Shown: positions 2,700 to 57,827 of the stretch, piece by piece
How the letters are laid out: every line of letters begins with the position of its first letter
Position numbering within the stretch: position 1 is the first letter of the stretch
Origin: Terriglobia bacterium
Lineage (GTDB): Bacteria > Acidobacteriota > Terriglobia > JAIQFV01
Reading direction: 5' to 3'
NCBI GenBank assembly: GCA_028716525.1
Contig: JAQUPQ010000014.1
Span: 14,544 to 78,543 of the forward strand
DNA length: 64,000 nt
Made by a program: the position numbers and the translations under genes
The notes under the pieces: generated by a model
Told to the model about the DNA's origin: nothing
The model's database searches: none
The model's input: only the letters and a program-made list of their open reading frames with translations

Positions 2700-4403
2700 C
2701 TAGTAGTTGAACTGTGTAACGATCATGATCGCGTTCGTGCCCTTCGGGACAACATTGACGATGCCCAGTGGATTTGCCGCCGCCAACGAGGAACTGAACG
2801 TCGCGATCTGACCGGGTGACATGGTGAATTGGTTGTGAACGTAATGCAGGTTCGAGTCGCCCACGGCAATGTCAAAGTGATTGTTGAAGTGATAGCTGAT
2901 GCCGGCAACGGTGCGCGTGAAATCCAGAGGGTTTGTGCCGCTGATATTCGTGTTTGGTTGGAAATAGTGGAACAAACCGAAAAGCCGGAAAGGCGAGCTT
3001 CCCAGCTTGACGTTCCCAAAGAAGGCGAACCCTTGCTGGCGAGTATGGTCTCCATTGAGGAGCCCCTTGGCGAGGGCATCAAAGGTGGCATTGGGGGTCG
3101 GACCAAGACCGAATTCATCCGCCGGCCCGGAACCCGAGAACAGGTTTCCGGTGCTGAAGGCATTCCGTCCTAAATCGTATTCTCCCACGATTTCGTAAGT
3201 CTTGGCGGGACTCTGGTAGTGCGCAAAAAGCGCCAGCCGGTTGAGCGCAATGCTTCTGGTATCGGGCGTCTGGGTGTTGTAGCCATAATCCTCGAACGCC
3301 GTCAGGCCAAAGCCGGTTCGGTCTATTTTTGTCCCAAACGGGTACCAGGTGACACGGGCCATGACTTGCTTCTTGTCGTTGGATTCGATGGCATGGAAGC
3401 TGGCTGTGTTGAAGACACCGATGTCGTAATCCAAGAACTCCTTGCCATTGATCATGACGGGGCCGTGCAGTTTGACGCCCGTGTAGGTGGAGCTGAGGCT
3501 CAGATAATTCCAAGGTACCAAATAGGCGAACCGGAAGCCGCTCAACGCTTCTTCCCAGTCCACCAGCGGGTTTTGTGTTTGCCCGGCCGTGAGTTTGTCT
3601 TTTCCAAACATGTCACTGCCGGAAAACAACGTGTTGAAGTCGACATACGCGTATTTAAGACGAAAACCAAGATTCCCGTTGGAACTGGTGTTGATGGCTG
3701 CACCATTCCCGAAAGCTTGGGCTTTGGATACGTCAACCTGGCGGTAGATGTTCGGGGTAAGGCGGAGTGTCACGGCCTCAGTCGGCGTGTACACGAAGTT
3801 AAGGTAGGTTCGAGTGACATCGAAGGAATTGAAGCCGTCGTTTCCGGGCCCCGGCTGATTGGCTTGGGTAATGAACTGGGGGCCGAATCCCGTCTGCGTG
3901 TAATACGACCAGTCTCCGAAGAAGGTGGCTCCGAGTTGAATTTTCCCATACGCCAGATCGGACAACTTGGGCTCTTTCTTTTGGGAGGGTGAATCTTGAG
4001 AAGCCTCCAAGGCGGATGCCGCCGACGTCCCGGCCAGGGGATTGGTCGCGCCGAAGGCCGGACTCAATGCCCCCGCGGGAGGAAGAACGGGCTTTAGGCT
4101 GGCGACTTGACCCGCGCTCTTCAATCGTAAGATCTCATCCTGCTGCAACTTCAGTTGGGCGCTCATCTGATCCATGGCGCGTTTCAGGTCCTCAATGGTC
4201 TGGGCTTGCTTTTGTAACGCTTCCTCCAGTTGCTGCGACTTTTCATCGGCGGCCGCGGGCGGAGCAGCATTTGACTTCGCCGATTTTCTTTTCATCGCTG
4301 TCTTCTGAGCAGGGGAGTTGTCCGCCGCGAAAGCAGGAAGACTAATCGCCAACACAGCCAGAATTACAATTGTTACTGCCGAGAGGGACAGAGTCTTTCT
4401 CAT
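2700..4403 (-). CDS. Putative phosphate-selective porin (Porin O/P-like outer-membrane beta-barrel) with an N-terminal coiled-coil extension.
   Basis: It has a signal peptide and a Q/E/K-rich coiled coil, followed by alternating beta-strand-like segments and a C-terminal aromatic end (TQFNY). It lies directly upstream of, and in the same orientation as, pstSCA. A Pho-box-like repeat array sits upstream. Confidence 0.5.
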   Translation of the reverse strand: MRKTLSLSAVTIVILAVLAISLPAFAADNSPAQKTAMKRKSAKSNAAPPAAADEKSQQLEEALQKQAQTIEDLKRAMDQMSAQLKLQQDEILRLKSAGQVASLKPVLPPAGALSPAFGATNPLAGTSAASALEASQDSPSQKKEPKLSDLAYGKIQLGATFFGDWSYYTQTGFGPQFITQANQPGPGNDGFNSFDVTRTYLNFVYTPTEAVTLRLTPNIYRQVDVSKAQAFGNGAAINTSSNGNLGFRLKYAYVDFNTLFSGSDMFGKDKLTAGQTQNPLVDWEEALSGFRFAYLVPWNYLSLSSTYTGVKLHGPVMINGKEFLDYDIGVFNTASFHAIESNDKKQVMARVTWYPFGTKIDRTGFGLTAFEDYGYNTQTPDTRSIALNRLALFAHYQSPAKTYEIVGEYDLGRNAFSTGNLFSGSGPADEFGLGPTPNATFDALAKGLLNGDHTRQQGFAFFGNVKLGSSPFRLFGLFHYFQPNTNISGTNPLDFTRTVAGISYHFNNHFDIAVGDSNLHYVHNQFTMSPGQIATFSSSLAAANPLGIVNVVPKGTNAIMIVTQFNY

Positions 4404-4493
4404 CGATTCTCCTTTTGGTCTTCATGAAATTTGTGGACCAGCGCCGTTGCCCGAGTATTTGAGGACGACCCTAATTCTGAAGGTCGGGGCGAT

Positions 4494-4534
4494 GTTAGAT
4501 CGTTCTGTGTTAAAAACGTGTGACAAACTGTTAA
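4494..4534 (-). promoter_or_regulatory. Second Pho-box-like array (TGTTAG, TGTTAA, TGTGAC, TGTTAA at 10-14 bp spacing) about 90-130 bp upstream of the porin gene.
   Basis: The motif family matches that of the pstS upstream array. The spacing is less regular. Confidence 0.3.
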
Positions 4535-4960
4535 AGATTCCATGAAACCCAGGACTGGGCTGAGGATTGTTCGGAGGGGGTCGGTACTGGGACTCGCCTT
4601 AGCAGCGTCAGTCCCGCGGCCTTTAGAGTGATCGGGGAATCGGTTGTGGGCCATCCACTGAAAGGGCAAGACACGCTGTCGTCAGGTGAGGGATGCTTTT
4701 TTCATCGAAGTACGATCCAGCATCGGTGATTCTGCCTTGCGTGGGCCTAGCGCTCGGCATCCCACCGAACCAAGAGGGGAGCAAGATGCTTCCTGCTGGC
4801 AGGAGCGCGATTCGAGTTGATTCCTAGCCAATTCATTCAAAAAAAGCGTGAGGTGAGGAATCCACATCTATCGTGAGAAGAAGCAGGGGCCATGAGGAAA
4901 GCGTCGCGAACTGAACGTGCGTACCCAACCCAACAAATGTCTTGACGAGGTAAATGAAAT

Positions 4961-4978
4961 CGGATATTCAGATATCCG
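4961..4978. promoter_or_regulatory. Putative ArsR operator: the inverted repeat CGGATAT-N4-ATATCCG, ending 2 nt before the arsR ATG. A TTGACG -35-like hexamer lies upstream.
   Basis: The palindrome is read directly. ArsR/SmtB repressors classically autoregulate through an imperfect 12-2-12 type palindrome that overlaps their own promoter. Confidence 0.45.
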
Positions 4979-4979
4979 G

Positions 4980-5384
4980 ATGCTTGAATTCTTTATGAAA
5001 GACATCGTCAAAGTTTTCAAGGCCCTCTCGGATACCACTCGTCTTCGCATTCTCCACCTGCTCGAGCAAACCGGGGAGCTGTGTGTGTGCGATCTCAAAA
5101 CCGTCCTCGAGTGTCCGCAGGCGCGCATCTCCAGGCACTTGGCGATTCTCAAGAATGCGGGCTTTATCGATGACCGGCGCGAGGGGACGTGGGTGCTTTA
5201 TTCCCTGACGAAAGCCAAGGGTCCCATTCAGCCCGTGGTTCGGAAAGCCTTCAAGCAGATCGTGGCTGTTTCTCCGGATTTTGGCGACGACAAGCAGCGC
5301 CTGCGACAGGCCCTGGCGCAAGGGCGATGCAAGACATTTCAAGTCGTCCATCCGCGTGGCCTGTCGAAACCAGCGCCACGATGA
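4980..5384 (+). CDS. arsR: ArsR/SmtB-family metalloregulatory repressor.
   Basis: It has a winged-HTH region and the ELCVCDL metal-binding motif (VFKALSDTTRLRILHLLEQTGELCVCDLKTVLECPQARISRHLAILKNAGFI). The start is taken at the internal ATG 4980 because the operator palindrome sits there. The track ORF begins at 4917. Confidence 0.85.
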   Translation: MLEFFMKDIVKVFKALSDTTRLRILHLLEQTGELCVCDLKTVLECPQARISRHLAILKNAGFIDDRREGTWVLYSLTKAKGPIQPVVRKAFKQIVAVSPDFGDDKQRLRQALAQGRCKTFQVVHPRGLSKPAPR

Positions 5385-7326: not shown

Positions 7327-7737
7327 TTGAAGCAGCGGGTTTTATTTTTATGCACCGGCAACTCGGCGCGGAGCCAGTTGGCTGAAGGGCTGCTCAGACA
7401 CTTGGCGGGCGACCGCTTCGAAGTCTTCAGTGCGGGGACAGTTCCCGTGGGTGTGAATCCCGCTGCCGTTGAAGTCATGAATGAGATCGGGATCGACATC
7501 TCCTCTCAGTGGTCCAAATCGGTGGAGGAATACGCCGGGCAGGACTTTGATGTGGTTTTTACTTTGTGCGACTACGCTCGGGAGACCTGTCCGATTTATT
7601 CCGGTGGAACCAAACAGCTGCATCAGAACTTCGAGGATCCTACCTGGGCGTCTTCTGACGGTCGCCTGGAAGCTTTTCGCCGTGTGCGCGATAAAATTGC
7701 CGAGCGGTTGAAGCAGTTCATTGCTTCCGGACAGTGA
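7327..7737 (+). CDS. arsC: Arsenate reductase ArsC of the LMW-PTP, thioredoxin-coupled type.
   Basis: It carries the CTGNSARSQ P-loop motif (MKQRVLFLCTGNSARSQLAEG...) and is 136 aa long. Confidence 0.9.
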   Translation: MKQRVLFLCTGNSARSQLAEGLLRHLAGDRFEVFSAGTVPVGVNPAAVEVMNEIGIDISSQWSKSVEEYAGQDFDVVFTLCDYARETCPIYSGGTKQLHQNFEDPTWASSDGRLEAFRRVRDKIAERLKQFIASGQ

Positions 7738-7765
7738 GTTCCCGCTGCTCCGAAAATATTATTCT

Positions 7766-8046
7766 GTCGTCCCGCGAAGCGGGACTAGAATCCAATCTCA
7801 ATCTTTTCCCCAGGCTTACGCCTGGGGCTAAAGATCTGGCGTCCTCCTGGCGGAGGACTTGTTGAATGTGGTCCAGCAAAGTTCCTCGAAGACAGTCGAA
7901 AGTCCTTTATTCGAGACGTAAGTCCAGCGTCGGTGGGGTTAGAAATAGATTAGTCCCGCCTTCCGGGACGGTAGACCTTTAGCCCAGCACGTCAGTGCTG
8001 GAGACGGTACGAGGGGAGGGCACCGAGTCCCGCTCCGCGGGACGAC
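7766..8046. repeat. Cluster of GC-rich hairpin modules. These include GTCCCGC-N3-GCGGGAC at both ends, CCCCAGGCTTACGCCTGGGG, GTCCTCCTGGCGGAGGAC and CCAGCACGTCAGTGCTGG.
   Basis: The palindromes are read directly. The same modules recur at 12.6, 22.0, 46.2-46.5 and 49.2-49.4 kb. Confidence 0.6.
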
Positions 8047-8245
8047 AGATACCTTTCGGGAGCAGGTAAGATAATCGTGCGAACAGAAGATGCTTGGATT
8101 TCTTTCGCCACGTCCGGCATGATCCAAAATGAAAACTGCTTGAGGTGAAATCTCCGCAGGGCATAGAATTCACCTGTCGCCAGTCGCGCCTGTGTTGGCC
8201 CCTGATGTTTTATCGACCGGGTGGCACGTGAGGCTTTCAAGTAAA

Positions 8246-10289: not shown

Positions 10290-10570
10290 CAAGGTACGCA
10301 GCGGCGAAAGCACCCGTGCCCGCTCAAGCCCGGCGAATCACCATCAAAGTCATGTCGTCGGCGTCGAAATCCGCGCTGCGGAATTTTGTCCAATCGTCGA
10401 GAATCGTCCGAATCATCAGTGACGGCGCGGCGCTTGAATTCCGTCCAACCAGATCGATCTGCCGTTCCGTTCCGTAAGGACGGCCCGCATCATCTTCCAT
10501 CTCCGTCAGTAAAGAGAATCAGGCCGTCGCCGGGTTGCAGCCTGCCAGGACTTGGTGATGGTCCGAAGAG
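10290..10570 (-). pseudogene. Frameshifted 3' fragment of a PP2C/SpoIIE-type phosphatase gene. It is a paralog of the gene at 11429..12424.
   Basis: The DNA is clearly similar to 11440-11660. The minus-strand frames give ...RLQPGDGLILFTDG, then a frameshift, then LTEMEDDAGRPYGTERQIDLVGRNSSAAP...DDMTLMVIRRA. The N-terminal two-thirds are absent. Confidence 0.6.
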
Positions 10571-11428: not shown

Positions 11429-12424
11429 TTACTGGCGACTAGAGGAATCCCCTTTTCTCCGTATTGCCATGAGCGTCATGTCATCGACCTTGAAACCGGG
11501 GCCACGGAATTTTGTCCAATCGTCGAGAATCGTCCTGACCATCACTTGCGGAGCAGCACTGGAATTATTCCGAACCAATTCGATCAACCGTTCAGTTCCG
11601 TAAGGACGGCCCGATTCATCTTCCATTTCCGTAAGGCCGTCGGTGAAAAGGACCAGGCTGTTGCCGGGTTGTAAACGAACGGATTTCTCGAGAAATTTTT
11701 CATTGCAAAAAAGCCCGATCGGCAGACCGGTGGCTTCCAGGGGGATAATGGAATCCCCTTGCACGAGCAGCGCCGGGTGATGGCCGGCGTTACAAAGCTC
11801 AACGGTTCCGGAGCGATGCGCCCGGCCACACACCAGGGTGGCGAAGTGAGTGGGCAGCGTGCTTTCGCAAAAGCCGCGGCTGGCGCGTTCCACTGCCTGA
11901 GTCAGAGGCAAACCCAGCGCGGTGAGTGTGCGCAACATGGCATGAAGTTGGCCCATCAACATGGAAGCAGCCAAGCCCTTGCCTGAAACGTCGCCCAACA
12001 TGAAACTGACGGTATCTTCCGATGAAGTTAGGACGTCGCAATAGTCTCCGCTCACCAAACCGGCCGGGGCATAATGGTGGGCGATTACCCAACCGGCGTG
12101 CTCCACCAAAGGTTTCGGAAGCATTTCCTTTTGAATCTGGGCGGCTAACTGCAAATCTTCTTCCAGATCGTGTTGTTGACCGGGCGTCAAGTGTGCAAGA
12201 CATAACCGCGCCAAAGGATCGGCTAACAAGCGGTCTTTCTCGATGGGTTCGTGACATACATCGCACAGTCCATAATCGCCCTTGTCCATGTGTCCCAAGG
12301 CGTGATCGACGCTCGCCAATAGATCTTGAATTTGCGACATATCCATGGAATTTTTCTGAACGATCTCAAGGCGGCTGCGGCGATCCAGAAGTTCGTTTCG
12401 GAGCATGTCGTTGGGGGTGCTCAT
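11429..12424 (-). CDS. PP2C-type (SpoIIE/RsbU-like) serine phosphatase with an N-terminal Cys-rich zinc-ribbon-like segment.
   Basis: It carries the PP2C motifs (GDYCDVL, GDVSGKGLAASMLMGQL, ELCNAGHHPALL, LVLFTDGLTE). The N-terminus contains CDVCHEP...RLCLAH. Confidence 0.8.
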   Translation of the reverse strand: MSTPNDMLRNELLDRRSRLEIVQKNSMDMSQIQDLLASVDHALGHMDKGDYGLCDVCHEPIEKDRLLADPLARLCLAHLTPGQQHDLEEDLQLAAQIQKEMLPKPLVEHAGWVIAHHYAPAGLVSGDYCDVLTSSEDTVSFMLGDVSGKGLAASMLMGQLHAMLRTLTALGLPLTQAVERASRGFCESTLPTHFATLVCGRAHRSGTVELCNAGHHPALLVQGDSIIPLEATGLPIGLFCNEKFLEKSVRLQPGNSLVLFTDGLTEMEDESGRPYGTERLIELVRNNSSAAPQVMVRTILDDWTKFRGPGFKVDDMTLMAIRRKGDSSSRQ

Positions 12425-12594
12425 GTTTGGTAACTCCTGTCGAAAGCCTGTTTTATTCCTCGGCTGAGTAAAAGTAGAATGTTAAAGGCAATAGTAAAAC
12501 ACTCTCGTTATGCACAAGCTATCATATTGTCCCGGCGTTGTGTCTATCCGACTATTTTACTGAATTTTTTCAGATAAGGGTTCAAGTCTATGTC

Positions 12595-12906
12595 GCTCCC
12601 TGCGGGAGCTCGTTGTTGTAGGGTCGTCAGGGTCCTGAGGCTTACGCCTCAGGCTACGACTATTTCATCCCCCAATGGGGGATTTCATTTTCGTGAAAAT
12701 TTCTAATTGTGCTGAGAAAGAACGCACAGGGATATAAGAATGTTTTATCTTCCGGGGAGGAGATTCAACACAGAGGACATCGAAGTTACACAGTGAATTC
12801 CCCGGTTTTTTCCGAGGCAGTTGCTCATGCCCCGATGGATCGGGGCACCCAGGAGAATGAAAATCGTTCTGGAAGCCGGGATGCTCCGCTTTTTGGAGCA
12901 TCCCGG
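12595..12906. repeat. Cluster of GC-rich hairpin modules: GCTCCCTGCGGGAGC, CCTGAGGCTTACGCCTCAGG, CATCCCCCAATGGGGGAT(TTCAT), CCCCGATGGATCGGGG and CCGGGATGCTCCGCTTTTTGGAGCATCCCGG.
   Basis: The modules are shared nearly verbatim with 46.4-46.55 kb and 49.2-49.3 kb. Confidence 0.6.
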
Positions 12907-13114
12907 ATGTGCCATCGAATGCACGGTTGTAATCTTACAGCCCGCCTTGGCGGACGAAAGAAAACGATCGATGGGGTCATGGTTGTTTTTGGTCCAGCCC
13001 ACCCGGGCTTGAAGAAGGATCACACGCTCTGGCCTTCGTTGTCCGCTTCGTGGGATACTTCTAAAATATCTTGGCGGTCAAGGGCGCGCTCCTGCAATTG
13101 GAACGCGTGAATCC

Positions 13115-16437: not shown

Positions 16438-16475
16438 TTTGGTAGCCACCCCGATATATCGGGGTGGCTACCAAA
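16438..16475. repeat. Perfect 38-bp palindrome TTTGGTAGCCACCCCGATATATCGGGGTGGCTACCAAA in the divergent intergenic region between the outer-membrane gene and the first MacB-like gene.
   Basis: It is read directly; the two half-sites are exact reverse complements. It also explains the mirror-image peptide GSHPDISGWLP seen in both-strand ORFs of the track. Confidence 0.55.
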
Positions 16476-16836: not shown

Positions 16837-19305
16837 ATGGAGACCATCATTCAGGATGTTCGGCACGGTTTGCGACTCTTGCGGAAAAACCCCAGCTTCA
16901 CGTTGATTGCGATACTGACGCTGGCCTTGGGCATTGGCGCCAACACCGCCATTTTTACGGTGATCAATGCCGTTTTCTTACACCCTCTGGCCATCGAAGA
17001 TCCCTCTCGTGTGGTAGCGGTTTTCACCCACGACACGCACACCGTTCAGGCGGCCAATTTGAATCTCACTCCAAGTTCGCTTCCCAACTATGAGGATTTC
17101 CGCGATCAGAACACGGTTTTTTCGGGTCTCGCTGCTTTTTTCCCCACAGGAGTGCGATGGACGAACAACGGTGCCACAGTCGGTTTGCCCGCCATGATGA
17201 CCTCTGCCAATTATTTCGATGTTCTCGGCCTCAAACCGTTTCGTGGACGGTTTTTCTCAGCCGACGAGGACATCAAGAAAGCGGCCAATGTAGCCGTTCT
17301 CAGTTACAACTTGTGGATAAATAAATTCGGGGCTGATCCCAATCTCATCGGAAAGACCATCACACTAAACAATCTGCCCTTCACGGTGATAGGCGTGGCG
17401 CCGCAGGGATTCAAAAGCACGTTCTCGCTGGTGGGACCCGACTGGGTGTGGATGCCTCTCAGCATGCGCGATCAGCTGTTGACCGGTCCGCTGAAAACCG
17501 AGATGAACAATCGGCGCTTTCGATGGATCAACATTTTTGGCCGTTTGAAGCCCGGCGTCAGCTTGGCCCAGGCCCAGTCTTCCATGAAGATCATCGCGGC
17601 CTCTTTGGAAAAACAATTTCCCAGCTTCAATCAGGGCCGCACGGTGGAGCTCTCCGGCATTTCCGAGGCAGCCATGGGGATCAATCAACGCTCGCAATTT
17701 GTGCAGGCCGGTGTGGTGTTAATGGGAGTCGTGGGGCTGGTCTTGTTGACTGCTTGCGTCACCCTGGCCAATCTGCTGTTGGCGCAATCGGCTCAGCGTG
17801 AAAGAGAAATCAGTGTCCGGACCGCGATGGGCGCCAGCCGTGGCCGCCTTATCCGTCAGTTGCTGGTCGAAAGCATTACCCTGGCGGTATTGGGCGGGGG
17901 GGTCGGACTGTTGGTGGCATACTGGGGACGCAACGCGCTGTGGTCGTTCCGGCCGCCCTTTCTCCAGGCCGCTTCCATTGACTTGAGCTTTGATCCCAAG
18001 GTGCTGACCTTCACGGCGGTCATCTCGGTATTGACAGGAATTATCTTCGGATTGGCGCCGGCGTTAAAACTATCGCGTTCGAATTTGAATGAGATTTTGA
18101 AGCAGGGAGGGCGCAGCGGGTCGCTGGACCTCGGACACAACCGCATGCGGAGCTTGCTGGTGGTTTCCGAAATTGCGCTGGCCACGGTGGCGCTGGTCGG
18201 ATCGGGTCTTTTCATACGCAGCATGCAAGCTGCCCAGAACATGGATTTGGGATTTGACTCCAAGCACATCGGGTTCATGGGCTTGAATCCCGGAATCCAA
18301 AACTATGACCAGCCGCGAGGCGAACAGTTTTATCTCGATGCCATCGCCAAGGCACGGCTTGTTCCCGGAGTTCGAGCGGCCGCCGTTTCGCTGCTGGCCC
18401 CGCTGAATTTGAGTATCGAGTGGACCGTTTTTTCGGAAGGTGTACAACAGAACTCCGACTATCGAGGATCGTTGATTGCTTTCAATGATGTGACCCCTGG
18501 ATATTTCGATACCCTGCGCATTCCTTTCCGAAAGGGAAGAGACTTTACGGAGTTTGACCGGGATCCGGCCACGCCCATCGCCATCATTAACGAGGAAGTG
18601 GCCCGGCAGCTTTGGCCCGGCAAAGAAGCCTTGGGGAAACACTTCACGATTGTCAACCAAACGGCTCTCATCGAGGTGGTCGGCGTGGTCGCCGATTCCA
18701 CGATCGCAGCGATCGGCGAAGATCCGACGCCGATGATTTACCGTCCCATTCAGCAGGCTTACGTGCCGGGTGCCGCGTTGCTGGTGCGAACCGGAGGAGA
18801 TCCCGGAAAAGCATTGGGCGCAGTGCGCGAACAGGTCCAATCGCTCGACCGTCACATGCCGCTGCGAAATACAGGAACGGTGCAGGAAAATATTGAAGCC
18901 GGACTGTGGGCCCCTCGCATGGGTGCCGCGCTGCTCAGTATTTTTGGAGGCCTGGCAATGCTTTTGGCCCTGATTGGCGTGTACGGCGTGATGTCGTACT
19001 CGGTGGTACAGCGAACTCAAGAAATCGGCATCCGCATGGCGCTGGGCGCCAATGCCGCCGATTTGCTGCGGCTGGTCATCGGACAAGGAATGACTTTGGC
19101 AATGGTCGGATTAAGTGTGGGCGTTGTCGTGGCCTTTTCCGCGGCGCGATACATTTCCTCCCTGTTGTTCGGCATCAAGGCCAGTGATCCTGCGACCTAT
19201 GCCAGCGTGGCATTGTTATTTAGCTTGGTGGCTGTTATGGCGTGTTATGTCCCGGCGCGACGAGCGACGAAAGTCGATCCGCTGGTGGCGTTGCGGTATG
19301 AATGA
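16837..19305 (+). CDS. MacB-like ABC transporter permease: an FtsX-family, duplicated-permease protein with a MacB periplasmic core domain.
   Basis: It is 822 aa long. The N-terminal segment reads LRKNPSFTLIAILTLALGIGANTAIFTV. It has two FtsX modules and ends in the C-terminal motif CYVPARRATKVDPLVALRYE. Confidence 0.8.
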   Translation: METIIQDVRHGLRLLRKNPSFTLIAILTLALGIGANTAIFTVINAVFLHPLAIEDPSRVVAVFTHDTHTVQAANLNLTPSSLPNYEDFRDQNTVFSGLAAFFPTGVRWTNNGATVGLPAMMTSANYFDVLGLKPFRGRFFSADEDIKKAANVAVLSYNLWINKFGADPNLIGKTITLNNLPFTVIGVAPQGFKSTFSLVGPDWVWMPLSMRDQLLTGPLKTEMNNRRFRWINIFGRLKPGVSLAQAQSSMKIIAASLEKQFPSFNQGRTVELSGISEAAMGINQRSQFVQAGVVLMGVVGLVLLTACVTLANLLLAQSAQREREISVRTAMGASRGRLIRQLLVESITLAVLGGGVGLLVAYWGRNALWSFRPPFLQAASIDLSFDPKVLTFTAVISVLTGIIFGLAPALKLSRSNLNEILKQGGRSGSLDLGHNRMRSLLVVSEIALATVALVGSGLFIRSMQAAQNMDLGFDSKHIGFMGLNPGIQNYDQPRGEQFYLDAIAKARLVPGVRAAAVSLLAPLNLSIEWTVFSEGVQQNSDYRGSLIAFNDVTPGYFDTLRIPFRKGRDFTEFDRDPATPIAIINEEVARQLWPGKEALGKHFTIVNQTALIEVVGVVADSTIAAIGEDPTPMIYRPIQQAYVPGAALLVRTGGDPGKALGAVREQVQSLDRHMPLRNTGTVQENIEAGLWAPRMGAALLSIFGGLAMLLALIGVYGVMSYSVVQRTQEIGIRMALGANAADLLRLVIGQGMTLAMVGLSVGVVVAFSAARYISSLLFGIKASDPATYASVALLFSLVAVMACYVPARRATKVDPLVALRYE

Positions 19306-19306
19306 A

Positions 19307-19345
19307 AAGTGACAAGTGGCGAGTGACAAGTGGTTAGAAGTGGCC
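19307..19345. repeat. Short array of the motif (A)GTGACAAGTGG, followed by an imperfect hairpin, immediately after the first permease gene.
   Basis: The sequence AAAGTGACAAGTGGCGAGTGACAAGTGGTTAGAAGTGGCC is read directly. The same motif family occurs at 21829-21955 and 22298-22336. Confidence 0.4.
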
Positions 19346-21819: not shown

Positions 21820-21828
21820 CAGGGGGCA

Positions 21829-22336
21829 GTGACAAGTGGTGAGTGAAGAGGAACCAGTGACGAGTGTGGAGTGACAAGTGACGAGAGAATAGTGATTAGT
21901 GGTTAGTGACCAGTGACAAGAGAACAGTGATCAGTGGTTAGTGACAAGTGGTTAGAGGCAGTTCTTCATGCGCCGATGGCTCGGGGACCCGAGAGCATGA
22001 AAATGATGAGGACCGATTCGGTTAGGCCCGGAGGGCCGGTTTGAGGGTAGCCCGCCCGCAGGGCGGGGCATTTCCCATCGCGAGGCGGAAATCATGCTGT
22101 GCAGGACGAATTTTGAATTTCGGTTTGCAAACACCGCAGCCGAGTCCCGATACGTCGGGACGAAGGCTGCGCTACCCAAACGACCACGGTTCCCCATTTT
22201 CGGAGCAGTGGTAATCGAACTTGGGCCAGAATGTTTTCATGCATCTGACGGATTTTTTCTTCTTCGCCCCGCAGCTCCATTCAGGTGGTTGAATTCTCTC
22301 GTCACTGGTCACTAACCACTGGTCACTAATCACTGC
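21829..22336. repeat. Composite MITE-like element. A left array of about 127 bp of GTGACAAGTG/TTAGTGACCAGTG motifs faces an inverted right array (GTCACTGGTCACTAACCACTGGTCACTAA). Between them lie about 340 bp containing hairpin modules of the dispersed repeat family.
   Basis: The arrays at 21829-21955 and 22298-22336 are read directly in opposite orientation. The internal hairpins (e.g. GCCCGCCCGCAGGGCGGGGC, and TTCTTCATGC...GCATGAAAA) are shared with 46.46-46.5 kb. The right end abuts the ROK gene stop. Confidence 0.4.
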
Positions 22337-46054: not shown

Positions 46055-46172
46055 TCTTGCCGTTGGGAGTGCGCTGAGGAAAAAATCAAATCAGCCCTGA
46101 TTCATGGGGCGACAAAAACCTCACAATCTCTGATTCGGCTGATCATCCTGTGTTTTTGGAAGTGCATCTGCC

Positions 46173-46548
46173 GTCCCGCAGTGCGGGACTCATCCCACCC
46201 CCTTCCGTTCTTTCCCGGCACTCACGTGCCGGGCTAAAGATCTAACGTCCGTCTTCGACGGACTATGTGAAGCTGATTTCTTGTTTTGTTTTTCCCCGCG
46301 AAGGACTAGCCCACGGATTCATTGACCCGCCGGGATTTCATGAAGGAAGTCCCGATGTACCTCATCGGGACGATAGATTTTTAGCCCCAGGCGTGAGCCT
46401 GGGGTATTGGAAGGAACGCGGTTTCAGTCCCGCTCTGCGGGACGGCAGACCGGCATTTTCGGAGCAGTTCTTCATGCAGCGTGGTCGCACCCAGTAGCAT
46501 GAAAATCGTTCTGGTAGCCGGGATGCTCCGCTTTTTGGAACATCCCGG
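46173..46548. repeat. Cluster of GC-rich hairpin modules from the same dispersed family: GTCCCGCAGTGCGGGAC, CCCGGCACTCACGTGCCGGG, GGCTAAAGATCTAACGTCC, CCCGATGTACCTCATCGGG, CCCCAGGCGTGAGCCTGGGG, GTCCCGCTCTGCGGGAC and CCGGGATGCTCCGCTTTTTGGAACATCCCGG.
   Basis: Modules are shared with 7.77-8.05 kb, 12.6-12.9 kb, 22.0 kb and 49.2-49.4 kb. This one contains a near-verbatim 65-bp match to 12848-12915. Confidence 0.6.
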
Positions 46549-46687
46549 ATGTGCGATCGACTCGGATTACCGCGAGGTCCGGCCCCGATGAATCGGGCGA
46601 TGCAAAAGTGAGGAAGTCATTTGCCGTTGAGCAGGGACGGCGAGGGGAGATCCAGACTAGCGATATGATAATGGACGGCCGGTAAAA

Positions 46688-46869
46688 AATTCCAAAGTCC
46701 AAAGGCCAAAATCCAAATAAAATCCAAATTCCAAAATTCAAACGGCCGAGTTCCGGAGGATCGCTTCGTCGGAGTCGCTTTTCTTGGAATTTGAAATTTA
46801 GGACCTGGAACTTACCTGAAATTTGGGTGTTGGAGCTTGGATTTTATTTGGATTTTGGACTTTGGAATT
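46688..46869. repeat. Long imperfect inverted repeat built from TCCAAA-rich arms of about 55 bp each, with a 60-bp centre. It begins 33 bp downstream of the GGDEF gene stop.
   Basis: The left arm is AATTCCAAAGTCCAAAGGCCAAAATCCAAATAAAATCCAAATTCCAAAATTCAAA. The right arm ...TTGGATTTTATTTGGATTTTGGACTTTGGAATT is its reverse complement apart from a 7-bp indel. Confidence 0.55.
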
Positions 46870-46901
46870 TACTCGCTGTCCGTCCCAAAATTTCGCCCAT
46901 T

Positions 46902-48497: not shown

Positions 48498-49218
48498 CGC
48501 GGATCAGCGAGAACCGCAGGGCCGGAAGCGCCCCAGATTTGACAATAAAGCCGCAGAGGCCGCCAGTCTACCATGTTTAAAGTTGGACGTGAACGGTTTT
48601 ACCTGAAATGGGGGATTCCCATGGTCCGTGAACCACACGACGGATCGGGACAGCCCCGCCATGATCTTGATCCCGTATAAGAATCTCCGCTGGGCATGTT
48701 CGACGGTATTCTTCAAATGCCCGAAAAAATAAAGCCCGCCGGAGTCTATCCGGCGGGCCGGGGAATTTATGTGTCTATCTCAATCGGATGGATTGGACAG
48801 GCTGTCGCTTCCCTTTGCGAGACAGCCTTGATCTAACGGCGGCCACCACAGCGCCGGAAGATACAAGACCTGCGATTACCCAAAAAAATGTCATTGAAAC
48901 AACCTCTTGTCTTTCTCAAATGTGGTCGGAGTTTGTACTGGTAGGGGGAACCGTCCGAGACCCGCCCGCGCGAACTCATAACCCAATAAAATGCTATCAC
49001 TTCTTCGGGGTTTCTCAAAAAAGATTTTTTGAGGAAGGTCCTTATTCCGTTTGCCCGGATGCGGGCCCGTCGCCGAAATTACGCAGAGAACGACGTGTCT
49101 AATTTCGGGGCATTATGTGGCGCGGGGATTTTCAATCTGCTCCGTCGAAGCGTATCCATGTTGGGATCCAGGTTTATGCCGCTCCCGTTGGGAGCTGGTC
49201 GTTCGCGCGGATCAGTGA

Positions 49219-49446
49219 CCTGAGGCTTGCGCCTCAGGCTACTGGTATGCCATCCCCCCATGGGGGATTTCATCTTCGTGAAAATTGTTCATACCGCAAC
49301 CCGGGACCCCGCAAAGCTGCGGCATGAAAATTCGAAAATGCAACGGAAGCCCATCCAACGTCCCTGAAGGGGACGAATTCAACAGCCCAGTCTCCCGCGG
49401 GGGACTGGGTATGGAATCGGCACCACGTTCTAACCCTGAAGGGGTT
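49219..49446. repeat. Cluster of GC-rich hairpin modules: CCTGAGGCTTGCGCCTCAGG, CATCCCCCCATGGGGGATTTCAT-CTTCGTGAAAAT, CGTCCCTGAAGGGGACG, CCCAGTCTCCCGCGGGGGACTGGG and AACCCTGAAGGGGTT.
   Basis: The first about 70 bp are about 90% identical to 12634-12705. Confidence 0.6.
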
Positions 49447-50590: not shown

Positions 50591-50600
50591 CAGTTGTTGT

Positions 50601-50699
50601 GGGGACAGACACCTCACGCTCAGGATGCTTTGGGACTGGGGACAGACACCTCATGCTCAGGATGCTTGGAAATTGTCGTGCCGTTGATGTCTGTCCCCA
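50601..50699. repeat. Tandem direct repeat: two copies of GGGGACAGACACCTCA(C/T)GCTCAGGATGCTT at a 37-bp period, plus an inverted copy of the core (GATGTCTGTCCCC).
   Basis: It is read directly. The core GGGGACAGACACC is identical to the stem of the hairpin at 15202-15261. Confidence 0.5.
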
Positions 50700-50804
50700 G
50701 TCTCGGAATAGGCGCCTTGATTTTTGGTTTTCATCGGTTCAAAATCCATCGCACGGCCCGGAAGATTTTCGCGAATTGATCTTCACCCACAGGAGGCATT
50801 GATC

Positions 50805-54558: not shown

Positions 54559-54981
54559 AATCGATTTTCAGGTACACTCTTTTAATCTGTCATGTCGTTA
54601 CACGGGTGAGGTCATTGACCGGTTATTTTTACTGTGCTAGCATGCGGGTGTTCTTCTATCTTACACACAACGAGATGGTTGGCGAAGGGAATGCCGGTTT
54701 CAGGGTGATCATCCCCTAGCGTCGTGGCAGCAGCACGAACAGCAATTCGATAGTGCCACGGGGATGATTTTTCAAGTGGCTTTGAAGATTATTACCGCCA
54801 AGCATCTCTGCAGGCGCAACGCAGGGCGCGATATTGCCTCGAGGCGCCAATTCTGGTGCTTCACGTTTACTACAACGTCCCCGCGGTCTACAACCTGGAA
54901 TCAATAAGAAAATTCACCACAGAAGAACGGGCGTCGGAGCCGGCTGCGGATCTGCCGTGAGCGAAGGTGAGGAATCATGCT

Positions 54982-55110
54982 TAACATCGGCACGAAGCTG
55001 GGACCGTACGTGATTGAGCTGTTTTGGCGGCGTCCGAGCCGCCAGGCGAAATTCCCCGTGAGGAGATCAGGTGGTGGCTCGGCGAAGGTGAGGAATTATG
55101 CTTAACATCG
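54982..55110 (+). other. Decoy upstream ORF of 42 codons. It is created by a 58-bp duplication of the kinase ribosome-binding site, ATG and first 16 codons. Its TAA stop overlaps the authentic kinase start (ATGCTTAA).
   Basis: Copy 1 (54962-55019) and copy 2 (55082-55139) differ at 4 of 58 positions. The upstream ORF encodes [42 protein letters not shown]. Confidence 0.4.
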
Positions 55111-57827
55111 GCACAAAACTCGGACCGTACGTGATTGAGTCATCTCTGGGCGCCGGCGGGATGGGGGAAGTCTATCGCGCCCGCGATACGCGACTGGATC
55201 GTACCGTCGCCATAAAGGTTCTGCCCGACCACCTGGCGGCGACCCCGGAATTGCGCCAGCGCTTTGAGCGCGAAGCCCGGTCCATCTCGGCACTCAATCA
55301 TGCCCACATCTGCGTTCTACACGATGTGGGCTCTCAAGACGGCATGGATTTCCTGGTCATGGAGTACCTCGAAGGAGAAACACTGGCCACACGACTGGCT
55401 AAGGGAGCCTTGCCCCTCGAACAGGCGTTAAAGATTGGCATCGATATTGCCGACGCACTGGACAAAGCCCATCGCGCCGGCATCACCCATCGCGATTTGA
55501 AGCCGGGTAACATCATGCTCACCAAGAGCGGAGCAAAACTTTTGGATTTTGGCTTGGCCAAATCTGCCGTCATGAGGACAGGGACATCGGGGACAGCACC
55601 GCTGCTGAGCGCTGCCCTGACGATGACTTCGCCGAGCCCGCAGGTCTCTCCTTTGACTACGGCCGGAACGATTGTGGGCACTATTCAGTACATGTCGCCG
55701 GAGCAAATCGAAGGCAAAGAGGCGGATGGCCGCAGCGATATTTTTGCCTTGGGAGTTGTGCTTTACGAGATGGCCACCGGCAAGCGCGCCTTTGAGGGAA
55801 AGTCACAGATCTCGGTGGCCTCTGCCATTTTAGAAAAAGATCCGGAGCCGATCAGCAGTTCTCAGCCTTCGGCGCCGCCGGCTTTGGATCGCGTCGTACA
55901 AACCTGTTTGGCCAAAGATCCCGATGAGCGCTTTCAAACAGCCCACGATCTGAAATTGCAATTGAGTTGGATTACGGAAGGAGGTCCGGCTTCCGGTGCT
56001 GCACAACCGGTGAGGCTCGACTGGCCGGTGCGGCGTAAGGCTCTTTGGGCTGGAGGCGCCTTGGTGGTTGTTCTATTGGCTGCATTCGGCGGGACCTTTC
56101 TCGTGCCCAAACCGAATGCCCCCACGGTCCGGGCGATCATTGAGCCGCCCGAAAATCTGACCATCGACTCCACGGGTGATTACAGCGGCCCGCCGGTTCT
56201 TTCGCCTCAGGGCGACAAAATCGTCTTCTGTGCCCACGGACGTAACAGTCCCAAGGAGTTGTGGGTGAGGTCTATGAACAGCTTCTCCAGCCAGCGACTG
56301 GAGGGTACGGAGGGCGCCTACGACCCGTTTTGGTCACCCGACGGAAGTTCCATCGGGTTCTTCAACAACGGCAAACTCGATCGCATTCCGGTGAACGGCG
56401 GCCCCGTAACGGTGGTGACCGACGCGCCCAACGCCCGAGGCGGGACCTGGGGCCCCGGCGATGTTATTTTGATGGCACCGGACATCCAAGGGCCCATCTT
56501 CCGAGTGGGTGCGGATGGCGGCAAACCGACCGCCGTGACGCAATTGGATGTCAGCAAGCATACGACACATCGATGGCCGACTCTCTTGCCGGACGGCAAG
56601 CATTTCCTTTATCTGGCCACAAATCATAATGGAGGCAAGCTGGAAGAGAACGGCATCTATTTTGCTTCGCTGGATGGAAAAGAAAACCGCTTGCTTGTGG
56701 CTACCGATGGAGACGGGGAATATGCTTCCGGCTACCTGCTGTTTCATTCCGGAACAGAGTTGATGGCCCAGCCATTCGACCCCGGCTCCGGCAAACTCTC
56801 CGGCGAACCCTCGCCATTGGTCGGAAGGATTCGCCAGGATTCCGGCGTGTGGCGTACGTTATTTACAGTTTCGCAGAACGGCCTGCTTATTTACGAACCC
56901 GGCGCCGCTGAAACAGCGGGATCACAATTGGTCTGGTTTGACCGCAACGGTAAGCAGTTGGGTCAAGTCGGGGAACGGGGATCGTACATGGATCCTCGTC
57001 TTTCACCCGACGGCAAGCGTTTGGCCGTGAGCTTCGGCGATCCGCAACGCGAGATATGGATTTTCGGCCTGGATCGCGGAACAAAAACTCGTCTGACGTT
57101 CAGTCAAGCGGCGAGCGGGACCAAGGTGGAGCCGGCCTGGTCGCCCGACGGCAGGACCGTTGCTTATTCAACCTCTCTCTCATCGCCCGGGGGCAACAAT
57201 ACGGCGATTGTCAGCAAGGCTGCCAGCGGCAACGGTGGTGAAGAAATTCTGGAAGAACGGCGGGGGAACTCCTTGAGCGGATATCGCTACCCGTCCTGGT
57301 CGCCGAATGGACAATACTTCGTCTACGTGGTCTCGAACGGACCCAGCGGAGCCGCGATTTACGCGAAGCCGACCAGCGGGAACGGCCAACCCATTGAGGT
57401 CGTGCGGCCCACTGCGCCCCAAGCCAACATTGGTTTTTATCGCATCTCACCGAACAACCGCTGGGTCGCCTACACCTCCGATGAATCGGGACGCACCGAA
57501 GTGTATATCGCACCCTTCCCGCATGGTGACGGCAAGTGGCAGGTCTCGACGACAGGCGCGGACTTTGCGGCTTGGCGCGGGGATGGTAAGGAAATCTACT
57601 TCAATACCAATGCGGACGAATATACAGCATGCTCCATCACGGAGCAAGGAAGCGATCTCGAAATCGGGACACCCCAGGTGCTTTTCGCAGCCAACACCTC
57701 GGCTTTGGGCGTCGGATATGACGTGACGTCCGACGGCAAGCGCTTTCTCGTCAATCTTGCCGGCGATGAGACTTCTCCACCGCTGCATCTGGTCGTGAAT
57801 TGGCCCGGCGATTTGAAAAGGAAGTAG
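55098..57827 (+). CDS. Ser/Thr protein kinase with a C-terminal TolB-like (PD40/WD40-like) beta-propeller sensor domain.
   Basis: It has Hanks kinase motifs ([34 protein letters not shown]) and a transmembrane segment, followed by repeated SPDG/WSPDG PD40 motifs. Confidence 0.85.

Follow-up and report, generated by a model that had tools for sequence, protein, structure and literature searches.

Intergenic hairpin clusters in a Terriglobia genome as probable REP-like DNA repeats associated with an IS200-like Y1 transposase family

The Acido-Lenti-1 motif (Rfam RF01687) was described in Acidobacteria and Lentisphaerae, where it sometimes lies near group II introns, and it was rated "probably" RNA because of the covariation of its helices (Weinberg et al. 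2010, PMC2864571). The REP and BIME repeats that accompany RAYT transposases in REPtrons and REPINs are short palindromes, rich in GC and lying outside genes, each with an unpaired foot of conserved sequence (PMC2817692, PMC3333891, PMC3116915), and REPs are known targets for insertion sequences (IS) (PMC1525189). Among the Y1 transposases, the text of Quentin 2018 (PMC6006769), leaving aside its figures, describes class 3 proteins (YV..EQ) as IS/REPtron intermediates with a CnGA foot and up to ~600 hairpins in Solibacter, while subclass 1.2, which carries the motif Y---Q--HH, is reported there without terminal structures and mostly from cyanobacteria or Bacteroidetes. Likewise, the text of Di Nocera 2013 (PMC3733652) describes Acidobacteria Y1 genes, termed TIRYT or "TIRtrons", with long, partly double-palindromic inverted repeats, and these flanking repeats can form repeat families. 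Acido-Lenti-1 is not named in the text of either paper, and our literature search, which covered texts rather than figures, found no paper tying Acido-Lenti-1 to a Y1 transposase.

We analysed a 64-kb stretch of DNA from a Terriglobia (Acidobacteriota) MAG, referred to here as the window, in which an initial annotation had listed six short palindromic modules at five sites. The only sequences identical to the window (100%) were short Logan contigs that come from its own sample, SRR22315506, and ~7 kb of additional flank was recovered beyond its ends. Scans of the window found no tRNA or tmRNA genes and no Rfam matches at gathering score, and local composition showed no anomaly (GC 50-59%). Nothing in this composition supports the suggestion in the initial annotation that the clusters bracket accessory genes. 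All five sites and all six modules were located where the initial annotation had placed them, and self-blastn recovered the two near-identities it had pointed out, namely 12845-12918 against 46487-46560 (93% over 74 nt) and 12634-12701 against 49219-49286 (88% over 68 nt). Self-blastn also returned the inverted 24-nt matches 7763-7786/8026-8049 and 46167-46190/46426-46449, each 23/24.

Since GC-rich genomes contain many short palindromes, the clusters could in principle consist of GC-rich terminator hairpins that have no relation to each other and are similar only through chance or base composition, and two of the eight unit calls given below are weak (21.7 and 13.6 bits). However, perfect GTCC...GGAC hairpins numbered nine in the window compared to 0.8 +/- 0.8 in shuffles, while the linker motif GGCTAAARRTCTNNCGTCC occurred 4 times and the terminal motif TCTGYCGTCCCGC-N3-GCGGGACT 5 times, compared to 0 for each in 100 dinucleotide shuffles. 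The three hairpins of each unit also keep a fixed order and spacing, and other genomes contain hundreds of copies of the unit. The shuffles and the alignment across the family thus refute chance resemblance, to which we assign a vanishingly small probability, and the hairpin clusters can be taken as real and non-random.

The modules had been described as combined in different orders, but a four-way alignment revealed that their order is fixed within a unit that itself occurs in both orientations. Four of the six listed modules, GTCCCGC..GCGGGAC, CCCCAGGC..GCCTGGGG, GGCTAAAGATCT..CGTCC, and CATCCCCC..GGGGGAT, are consecutive parts of this one three-hairpin unit, and the other two form a separate second repeat. 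The unit spans ~95-100 nt and consists of a TCTGYC-hairpin B', 20-24 nt, hairpin A (loop TNAM), a GGCTA linker, and hairpin B. Eight units were observed in the 64 kb, arranged as three inverted dimers and two solo units, with plus/minus dimer outer spans of 195, 191, and 191 nt according to a rebuilt covariance search described below (model R1). A hairpin cluster is indeed present in the span flagged by the initial annotation (7766-8046), although its true extent is a single bounded 287-nt element at 7763-8049. This composite and the one at 46167-46449 each comprise two inverted half-elements, in which TCTGYC-GTCCCGC-N3-GCGGGAC-T (B') is followed by a 22-24 nt spacer, hairpin A, GGCTAAAGATCT-NN, and hairpin B (CGTCC...GGACT). 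Hairpin A in the window composites has a variable 7-8-bp stem and the loop TNAC, and its stems vary between halves by compensatory change (CCCCAGGC/GCCTGGGG compared to CCNGCAC/GTGCNGG). Subfamily II (12.6 and 49.2 kb) has the same architecture, with B' as GCTCCC-N3-GGGAGC, A as CCTGAGGC-TTAC-GCCTCAGG, and B as CATCCCCC..GGGGGAT. Identity among composites is 58-66% (62-64% for 7763-8049 compared to 46167-46449); between half-elements it is 67-74% in subfamily I and 77% in subfamily II. All window units lie outside the available gene calls, several of them just past stop codons. The features are as follows:

7327-7737: ArsC-like protein gene, stop codon 26 nt before 7763; the next homologue of the protein beyond its own MAG is 69% identical.
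7763-8049, no single strand: composite I-a, 287 nt, two three-hairpin halves tail-to-tail; 24-nt terminal inverted repeats; DNA fold -73 kcal/mol, z -6.9.
7763-7786, plus strand: outer B' and foot, TCTGTC-GTCCCGC-GAA-GCGGGAC-T, forming the left terminal repeat; 22 nt separate its end from hairpin A, as across the family.
7808-7859, plus strand: Acido-Lenti-1-like unit, A CCCCAGGC-TTAC-GCCTGGGG, linker GGCTAAAGATCTGG, B; RF01687 31.7 bits, R1 32.8.
7952-8002, minus strand: Acido-Lenti-1-like inverted partner with the differing A stem CCAGCAC/GTGCTGG; RF01687 33.3 bits, R1 33.4.
8026-8049, minus strand: outer B', right terminal repeat; self-blastn, hairpin and motif search.
12590-12610, plus strand: outer B', subfamily II, ATGTC-GCTCCC-TGC-GGGAGC-T; ends 25 nt before hairpin A.
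12634-12684, plus strand: subfamily II unit, CCTGAGGC-TTAC-GCCTCAGG, CTAC linker, hairpin CATCCCCC-AA-TGGGGGAT; RF01687 30.4 bits, R1 30.7.
22024-22067, minus strand: degenerate Acido-Lenti-1-like unit; R1 21.7 bits, E 8e-4.
22144-22161, minus strand: B'-type hairpin on its own, GTCCCGA-TACG-TCGGGAC; atypically spaced, at 77 nt from the unit.
46167-46449, no single strand: composite I-b, 283 nt, architecture as in I-a, opposite overall orientation; self-blastn and four-way alignment.
46167-46190, plus strand: outer B', left terminal repeat; self-blastn, hairpin and motif search.
46214-46264, plus strand: Acido-Lenti-1-like unit; RF01687 33.0 bits, R1 33.5.
46348-46404, minus strand: Acido-Lenti-1-like unit; RF01687 31.9 bits, R1 33.3.
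46426-46449, minus strand: outer B', right terminal repeat; self-blastn, hairpin and motif search.
49176-49196, plus strand: outer B', subfamily II, ATGCC-GCTCCC-GTT-GGGAGC-T; sequence, folding.
49219-49269, plus strand: subfamily II Acido-Lenti-1-like unit; R1 28.9 bits, E 1e-5.
49359-49409, minus strand: weak degenerate inverted partner unit; R1 13.6 bits, E 0.08; outer span 49219-49409, 191 nt.

The two remaining modules, TTCTTCATGC...GCATGAAAATCGTTCTGG and CCGGGATGCTCC...GGAGCATCCCGG, belong to the second repeat (modules f and d), which is separate from the Acido-Lenti-1-like unit and always lies 13-132 nt from one:

12817-12906, plus strand: module f (12817-12872) and module d hairpin (12876-12906); 93% identical to 46487-46560; fold z -4.3.
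21958-22004, plus strand: module f without module d; weak fold, z -0.8.
46464-46548, plus strand: module f (46464-46514) and module d (46518-46548); self-blastn.

Modules f and d had no match in Rfam, even at lax thresholds, and none in the other loci (160 fetched).

When the window was scanned against Rfam by E-value, RF01687 aligned end to end (positions 1-46 of 46) at 7808, 7952, 12634, 46214, and 46348, with scores of 30.4-33.3 bits. The gathering score of 37 bits was not reached by any window copy, chiefly owing to a longer hairpin B and one additional base in the linker; copies in related loci scored 37.5-59 bits with RF01687. A second model, R1, was built anew from the seed of Weinberg et al. 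2010 (46 non-redundant sequences) and used in a search without filters. R1 found eight units in the window, seven of them at E < 1e-3, adding 49219, 22024, and 49359 to the RF01687 set; the unit at 49359-49409 was accepted on the sole ground that its geometry matches that of the other two dimers. The units resemble RF01687 in hairpin A (8 bp, 4-nt loop), GGCUA, the ~12-nt linker, and hairpin B ending in ACU, as well as in their occurrence in Acidobacteria, often in clusters. They differ in that a third hairpin, absent from the model, lies upstream in the real unit: B' was perfect in 199/229 units compared to 69/229 in a same-size downstream control, and it ended 20-24 nt before hairpin A in 145 of those 199 units. 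B' is therefore a general part of the unit, which has three hairpins and, at ~95-100 nt, is longer than the Rfam model. Judged by these alignments, the window units are to be regarded as diverged members of the known family Acido-Lenti-1.

The modules are not confined to the window. An exact scan for the terminal motif in one genome per species returned 77 loci, mostly from Acidobacteriaceae and Korobacteraceae MAGs with some from Verrucomicrobiota, and the few actinomycete matches were coding-sequence coincidences. R1 found 143 units in 552 kb of these 77 loci. Conservation in relatives, whose absence the initial annotation had named as refuting its reading, thus holds for the core modules of the unit, but not for the two modules outside Acido-Lenti-1, which were absent from the 160 fetched loci. 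The window's subfamily and composite form were found in one MAG only, CAZIDA01 (loci L030, L042, and L077), and a metagenome DNA scan for the subfamily linker pattern gave 0 matches. Dimers in other Acidobacteriaceae MAGs are ~200 nt long and head-to-head, with B' inside, whereas the window dimers are tail-to-tail. In two MAGs, an IS5/IS1182-like IS is inserted exactly in the loop of hairpin A. The truncation of one unit exactly at this loop (locus L060) was considered as a cleavage site but rejected: an IS5/IS1182-like IS has inserted in the loop there with a TGAA duplication, and the unit breaks off at its junction.

Five MAGs also retain a full unit in the orthologous nuoI-nuoJ spacer. It lies antisense to the operon and shows compensatory stem changes, and the spacer outside the unit is unalignable among those MAGs. 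This retention suggests selection or continual conversion and not merely selfish spread. It resembles the long vertical persistence reported for REPINs, and it may leave room for a host role of the unit.

Covariation in the stems is strong. Among ~230 related copies, the stem cells were paired in 98.9% and 98.3% of cases, with 180 and 334 double changes compared to 32 and 78 in shuffles, and alignment A3, which includes six window copies and is model-fitted and hence leans towards structure, had compensatory changes in 12/13 pairs with 98.9% of cells paired. Such covariation in both helices, together with the conservation of the unpaired loop TNAM and GGCUA across phyla and the retention of one unit at an orthologous operon spacer, would suit the Rfam label, according to which the unit encodes all or part of a small structured RNA acting in trans or in cis and any transposase link is secondary. 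In the helices of functional RNAs, G·U is normally tolerated and A·C is not; for an RNA transcribed from the modelled strand G·U would be expected to lie far above A·C. The observed stem pairs were:

A3: Watson-Crick 1284, G·U 7, A·C 8.
A6: Watson-Crick 1401, G·U 4, A·C 15.
Published seed: Watson-Crick 563, G·U 6, A·C 23.

G·U therefore makes up ~0.3-1% of stem cells and shows no excess over A·C on the Rfam strand (7:8, 4:15, and 6:23), which speaks against a strand-specific RNA. Units were oriented with the neighbouring gene in 31 cases and opposite to it in 37, i.e. without bias (crude gene calls), and the nuo copy is antisense to its operon. Since units occur as inverted pairs, any transcript would carry one sense and one antisense copy, and in relatives the units are placed in inverted orientation and at fixed distances around a transposase gene. 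Taken together, the Watson-Crick-only stems, the lack of orientation bias, and the inverted pairs favour a DNA-level palindrome over a strand-specific RNA, and we consider the RNA gene improbable; in contrast with the sRNA label of RF01687, the data favour a DNA repeat tied to a transposase. A terminator or 3'-UTR role was rejected as well, since units were found in all intergenic types with no preference for convergent or co-directional gene ends (109 units, crude gene calls), no orientation bias was seen, and no T-run follows the window hairpins.

The association with a transposase was observed in relatives of the window. Three of the 124 ORFs adjoining units matched Pfam Y1_Tnp, and tblastn located Y1 homologues in L077, L062, L004/L045, L060, and L036. 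The gene has ~145-150 codons, and its product is an IS200-like HUH/Y1 single-strand-DNA transposase. As a reciprocal test, we fetched 80 metagenome loci by Y1 protein similarity alone and then searched them with R1. A unit lay <=250 nt upstream of the Y1 gene in 53/68 loci (51 on the minus strand, median 60 nt) and <=250 nt downstream in 54/71 loci (52 on the plus strand, median 58 nt), and both flanks carried a unit in 40/59 of the loci chosen by Y1 protein. In nine loci, both flanks were confirmed by Rfam's own RF01687 model at gathering score. Each flank reads, outward from the gene, B', spacer, A, linker, B. In L077, from the closest relative MAG, the Y1 gene (4304-4753) lies between composites at 3962-4295 and 4823-5178, which share their TCTGYCGTCCCGC ends and CTAAAGATCT linker with the window composites. 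No Y1 homologue was detected in the 64-kb window (tblastn, best E 0.75), and the ~7 kb of recovered flank contained neither units nor Y1 genes. With no transposase gene in the window, its copies are either relics or would need an enzyme whose gene lies elsewhere.

The Y1 proteins carry the HUH motif and Y---Q--HH, and they scored 64.4 and 59.7 bits with NCBIfam NF033573 (IS200/IS605, cutoff 55) compared to 24.2 and 18.3 bits with the RAYT model NF047646 (cutoff 80), which they fail. The nearest solved structure is IS608 TnpA, with which the HUH motif and the catalytic Tyr aligned, so the enzyme looks catalytically intact. In one MAG, the Y1 element is present in at least 3 copies of 92-99.7% identity, and such near-identical multi-copy elements indicate that the system is apparently still active in some lineages.

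In function, the system would resemble REP/BIME with RAYT, or REPIN-RAYT. The units are GC-rich palindromes outside genes, eight of them in the 64 kb. Where REPs have a conserved GTAG (or CGTC) tetranucleotide, the unpaired foot of hairpin A, on the complementary strand, reads GTAG in the 3 units at 12634, 49219, and 22024, TTAG in 4, and ACAG in 1. Copies in alternating orientation are shared with REP/BIME clusters (the three plus/minus dimers of the window). As in REPtrons and REPIN-RAYT systems, a Y1 HUH gene is flanked by inverted repeat copies, which was seen in relatives (the 40/59 loci) and not in the window, and whole doublets flank the Y1 gene in L077. Heterodimers with different stems, long vertical persistence, and IS insertion into the palindrome are further traits shared with REPINs. 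In contrast with REP/RAYT systems, there are three hairpins over ~100 nt instead of one, with doublets of 190-290 nt; the Y1 protein is IS200-like (Y---Q--HH) and fails the RAYT model, whereas RAYT/TnpA-REP proteins are class 2 (Y---NP); and the Y1 gene can be multi-copy in one genome. Since the RAYT model fails, REP/RAYT is best used here as an analogy and not as a statement of membership. With this qualification, the REP/BIME- or MITE-like intergenic reading given in the initial annotation is borne out for the Acido-Lenti-1-like unit by its alternating dimers and by the inverted flanks of the Y1 gene in relatives, but the REP-like explanation does not account for modules f and d.

Other known systems match less completely. 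IS200/IS605 elements provide the closest solved relative of the transposase (IS608 TnpA; PDB 2a6m, 2vhg) and are similar in their ~660-700 nt element, subterminal hairpins, and lack of target-site duplication. However, they have two different hairpins on one strand, whereas here the same three-hairpin module is inverted at both ends, and because its ends are inverted repeats this is not a canonical IS200/IS605 element. Bacterial MITEs (Correia/NEMIS, ERIC, RUP) are likewise non-coding, intergenic, and highly structured, and the 283-287 nt length and 24-nt terminal inverted repeats of the composites would fit them. The composites are nevertheless not typical MITEs, because they lack a target-site duplication and their copies are only ~63% identical; moreover, their conservation is structural and not sequence-wide, and the enzyme is a Y1 HUH and not a DDE transposase. 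The TIRYT genes share the Acidobacteria setting and long, partly double-palindromic inverted repeats, but going by the text of Quentin 2018 (PMC6006769) they apparently fall in subclass 2.1 (class 2, Y---NP; a placement that we inferred), and the motif does not fit. Class 3, as that text describes it, was set aside in turn, since a CCGA foot occurs at two hairpins only and the proteins differ from it in their Y motif. Both were set apart by descriptions in the texts and not by the repeat sequences in the figures, so some overlap is possible. The Y1 proteins do carry the Y---Q--HH signature of subclass 1.2, but terminal structures are present here, unlike in the account of that subclass in the same text (PMC6006769).

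We think it probable that the clusters are DNA repeats of the REP/REPIN-like, non-autonomous kind that belong to a Y1 (HUH) transposase system, and they are most likely best read as ordinary REP/MITE-like mobile-DNA remnants, not as a new kind of element. We infer that the Y1 enzyme acts on the hairpins, and that the window copies were mobile and arrived by transposition. Exposure of single strands, as at a replication fork, could let the perfect palindromes fold; the Y1 enzyme would then recognise the hairpins together with their conserved positions outside the stems (the TCTGYC foot, the loop TNAM, GGCTA, and the ACT tail), and by cutting and rejoining DNA it could bring units and dimers that lack the gene into intergenic DNA, by copying or by rearrangement. 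Five composites were inspected for flanking direct repeats and none has one; the lack of a target-site duplication is expected of Y1 elements. With composites 62-64% and half-elements 67-77% identical, the window copies are old.

Roles in mRNA stabilisation, termination, and protein binding or supercoiling have been proposed for E. coli REPs. The units could accordingly be host-domesticated structures (mRNA 3'-end stabilisers, terminators, or protein-binding/supercoiling sites) that are selected and no longer mobilised, with a transposon origin of historical interest only. The nuoI-nuoJ unit, retained with compensatory changes in a spacer that is otherwise unalignable, is consistent with this possibility, as are the low identity among window copies, whose conservation is limited to structural positions, and the intergenic location of all window units, several right after stop codons (7763 is 26 nt past the ArsC stop). 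However, the 109 units with crude gene calls showed neither orientation bias nor a preference for convergent or co-directional gene ends, the window hairpins lack T-runs, and the near-identical multi-copy Y1 elements of one MAG point to a system still active in some lineages. We regard domestication as unlikely, if somewhat less so than an RNA gene, and it overlaps with the explanation of the clusters as mobile repeats rather than excluding it.

If the clusters are REP-like repeats, the five structured intergenic regions of the window are most likely repeat DNA of an ordinary kind and neither new genes nor regulatory RNAs, and in annotation they should be masked or labelled as repeats. They also call for caution, since covariation alone cannot separate RNA genes from DNA palindromes maintained by HUH enzymes. 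The analysis offers a concrete origin for an Rfam family that has lacked a known function since its description in 2010, and a Y1 group with the motif of a subclass reported, in the text of Quentin 2018, as lacking terminal structures is now paired with a candidate DNA substrate. On a broader proposal we are evenly divided: the Acido-Lenti-1 "sRNA" would be not an RNA gene but two-thirds of the three-hairpin DNA end-module of a phylum-spanning IS200-like Y1 family (Y---Q--HH), an IS/REPtron intermediate whose gene-less dimers would colonise intergenic regions in Acidobacteriota and other phyla, be retained at orthologous sites, and serve as targets for other ISs. Pairing the Y1 group with this candidate substrate makes a REP-like system outside Proteobacteria testable in vitro with defined oligonucleotides.

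Five MAGs have retained the whole three-hairpin unit at an orthologous site, the nuoI-nuoJ spacer, where it lay antisense to the operon. The stems of these units carried compensatory changes, and the spacer around them could not be aligned among the five MAGs. Their positions in the loci fetched from relatives were:

L010, 702-751: complete unit, antisense to operon
L031, 6312-6361: complete unit, antisense to operon
L076, 6926-6975: complete unit, antisense to operon
L027, 2054-2103: complete unit, antisense to operon
L019, 7009-7058: complete unit, antisense to operon

Elsewhere among the relatives, units were located 260-600 nt upstream of the starts of six ORFs encoding a single protein family (40-57% identity). 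This family had no significant match in Pfam or NCBIfam, the sole match in that search being a sub-threshold zinc-finger at the N-terminus. These ORFs may lie next to units because all six represent a single orthologous locus, or the association may be genuine.

L013, 1065-1928 (-): unit-adjoining ORF
L060, 2869-3711 (+): unit-adjoining ORF
L050, 4332-5147 (+): unit-adjoining ORF
L034, 1266-1934 (-): unit-adjoining ORF
L067, 2869-3552 (+): unit-adjoining ORF
L054, 5206-6150 (+): unit-adjoining ORF

Within the window, every copy of the second repeat family, which comprises modules f and d, lay 13-132 nt from a unit, and two of these copies (12845-12918 and 46487-46560) were 93% identical. The f/d family matched neither Rfam nor any of the 160 fetched loci. 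The positions of this family and of other repeats in the window were:

12817-12906, 21958-22004 and 46464-46548: f/d family
19304-19338, 21824-21956 and 22294-22320 (inverted): tandem heptads of the AGTGACA/AGTGGTT type
46690-46870: AT-rich long inverted repeat (~180 nt), downstream of the GGDEF gene
16438-16475: perfect 38-nt palindrome, TTTGGTAGCCACCCCGATATATCGGGGTGGCTACCAAA, upstream of the first permease gene
50600-50630 and 50637-50667: pair of 31-nt direct repeats with 97% identity, upstream of the ORF at 50724
54961-55018 and 55082-55139: 58-nt duplicate (93%), covering the RBS and 5' end of a Ser/Thr kinase gene

The heptads begin directly 3' of the stop codons of the two MacB/FtsX-type permease genes, and in other MAGs of Acidobacteria the nuoI-nuoJ spacer is flanked by similar heptads (CTGACTA/AGCAATT). 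The long inverted repeat is composed of TCCAAA-like repeats and folds as DNA at -42 kcal/mol (z -6.2). The 38-nt palindrome may be an operator or terminator. Three paralogous Ser/Thr kinase genes are located at 55098, 59957 and ~62700. In addition, positions 10334-10509 and 11460-11635 are 78% identical over 176 nt; the latter falls in the 3' part of a SpoIIE-type phosphatase gene (11429-12424), a match that suggests that the former is a gene fragment within the poorly coding 9.3-11.4 kb region.

An IS5/IS1182-like DDE insertion sequence with inverted ends GAGSCTGTTACGAAAC had inserted exactly into the 4-nt loop of a unit's hairpin A, with the loop TGAA duplicated, one copy on each side of the element. 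In another MAG, a second copy (85% identical) occupied the same position in the hairpin A loop.

L065, 3285-4802: IS5/IS1182-like element (Pfam DUF772 and DDE_Tnp_1)
L060, up to 1522: IS5/IS1182-like element

REPs of Proteobacteria are known targets of insertion sequences, and the units behave in the same way here, with the IS5/IS1182-like element in the loop of hairpin A.
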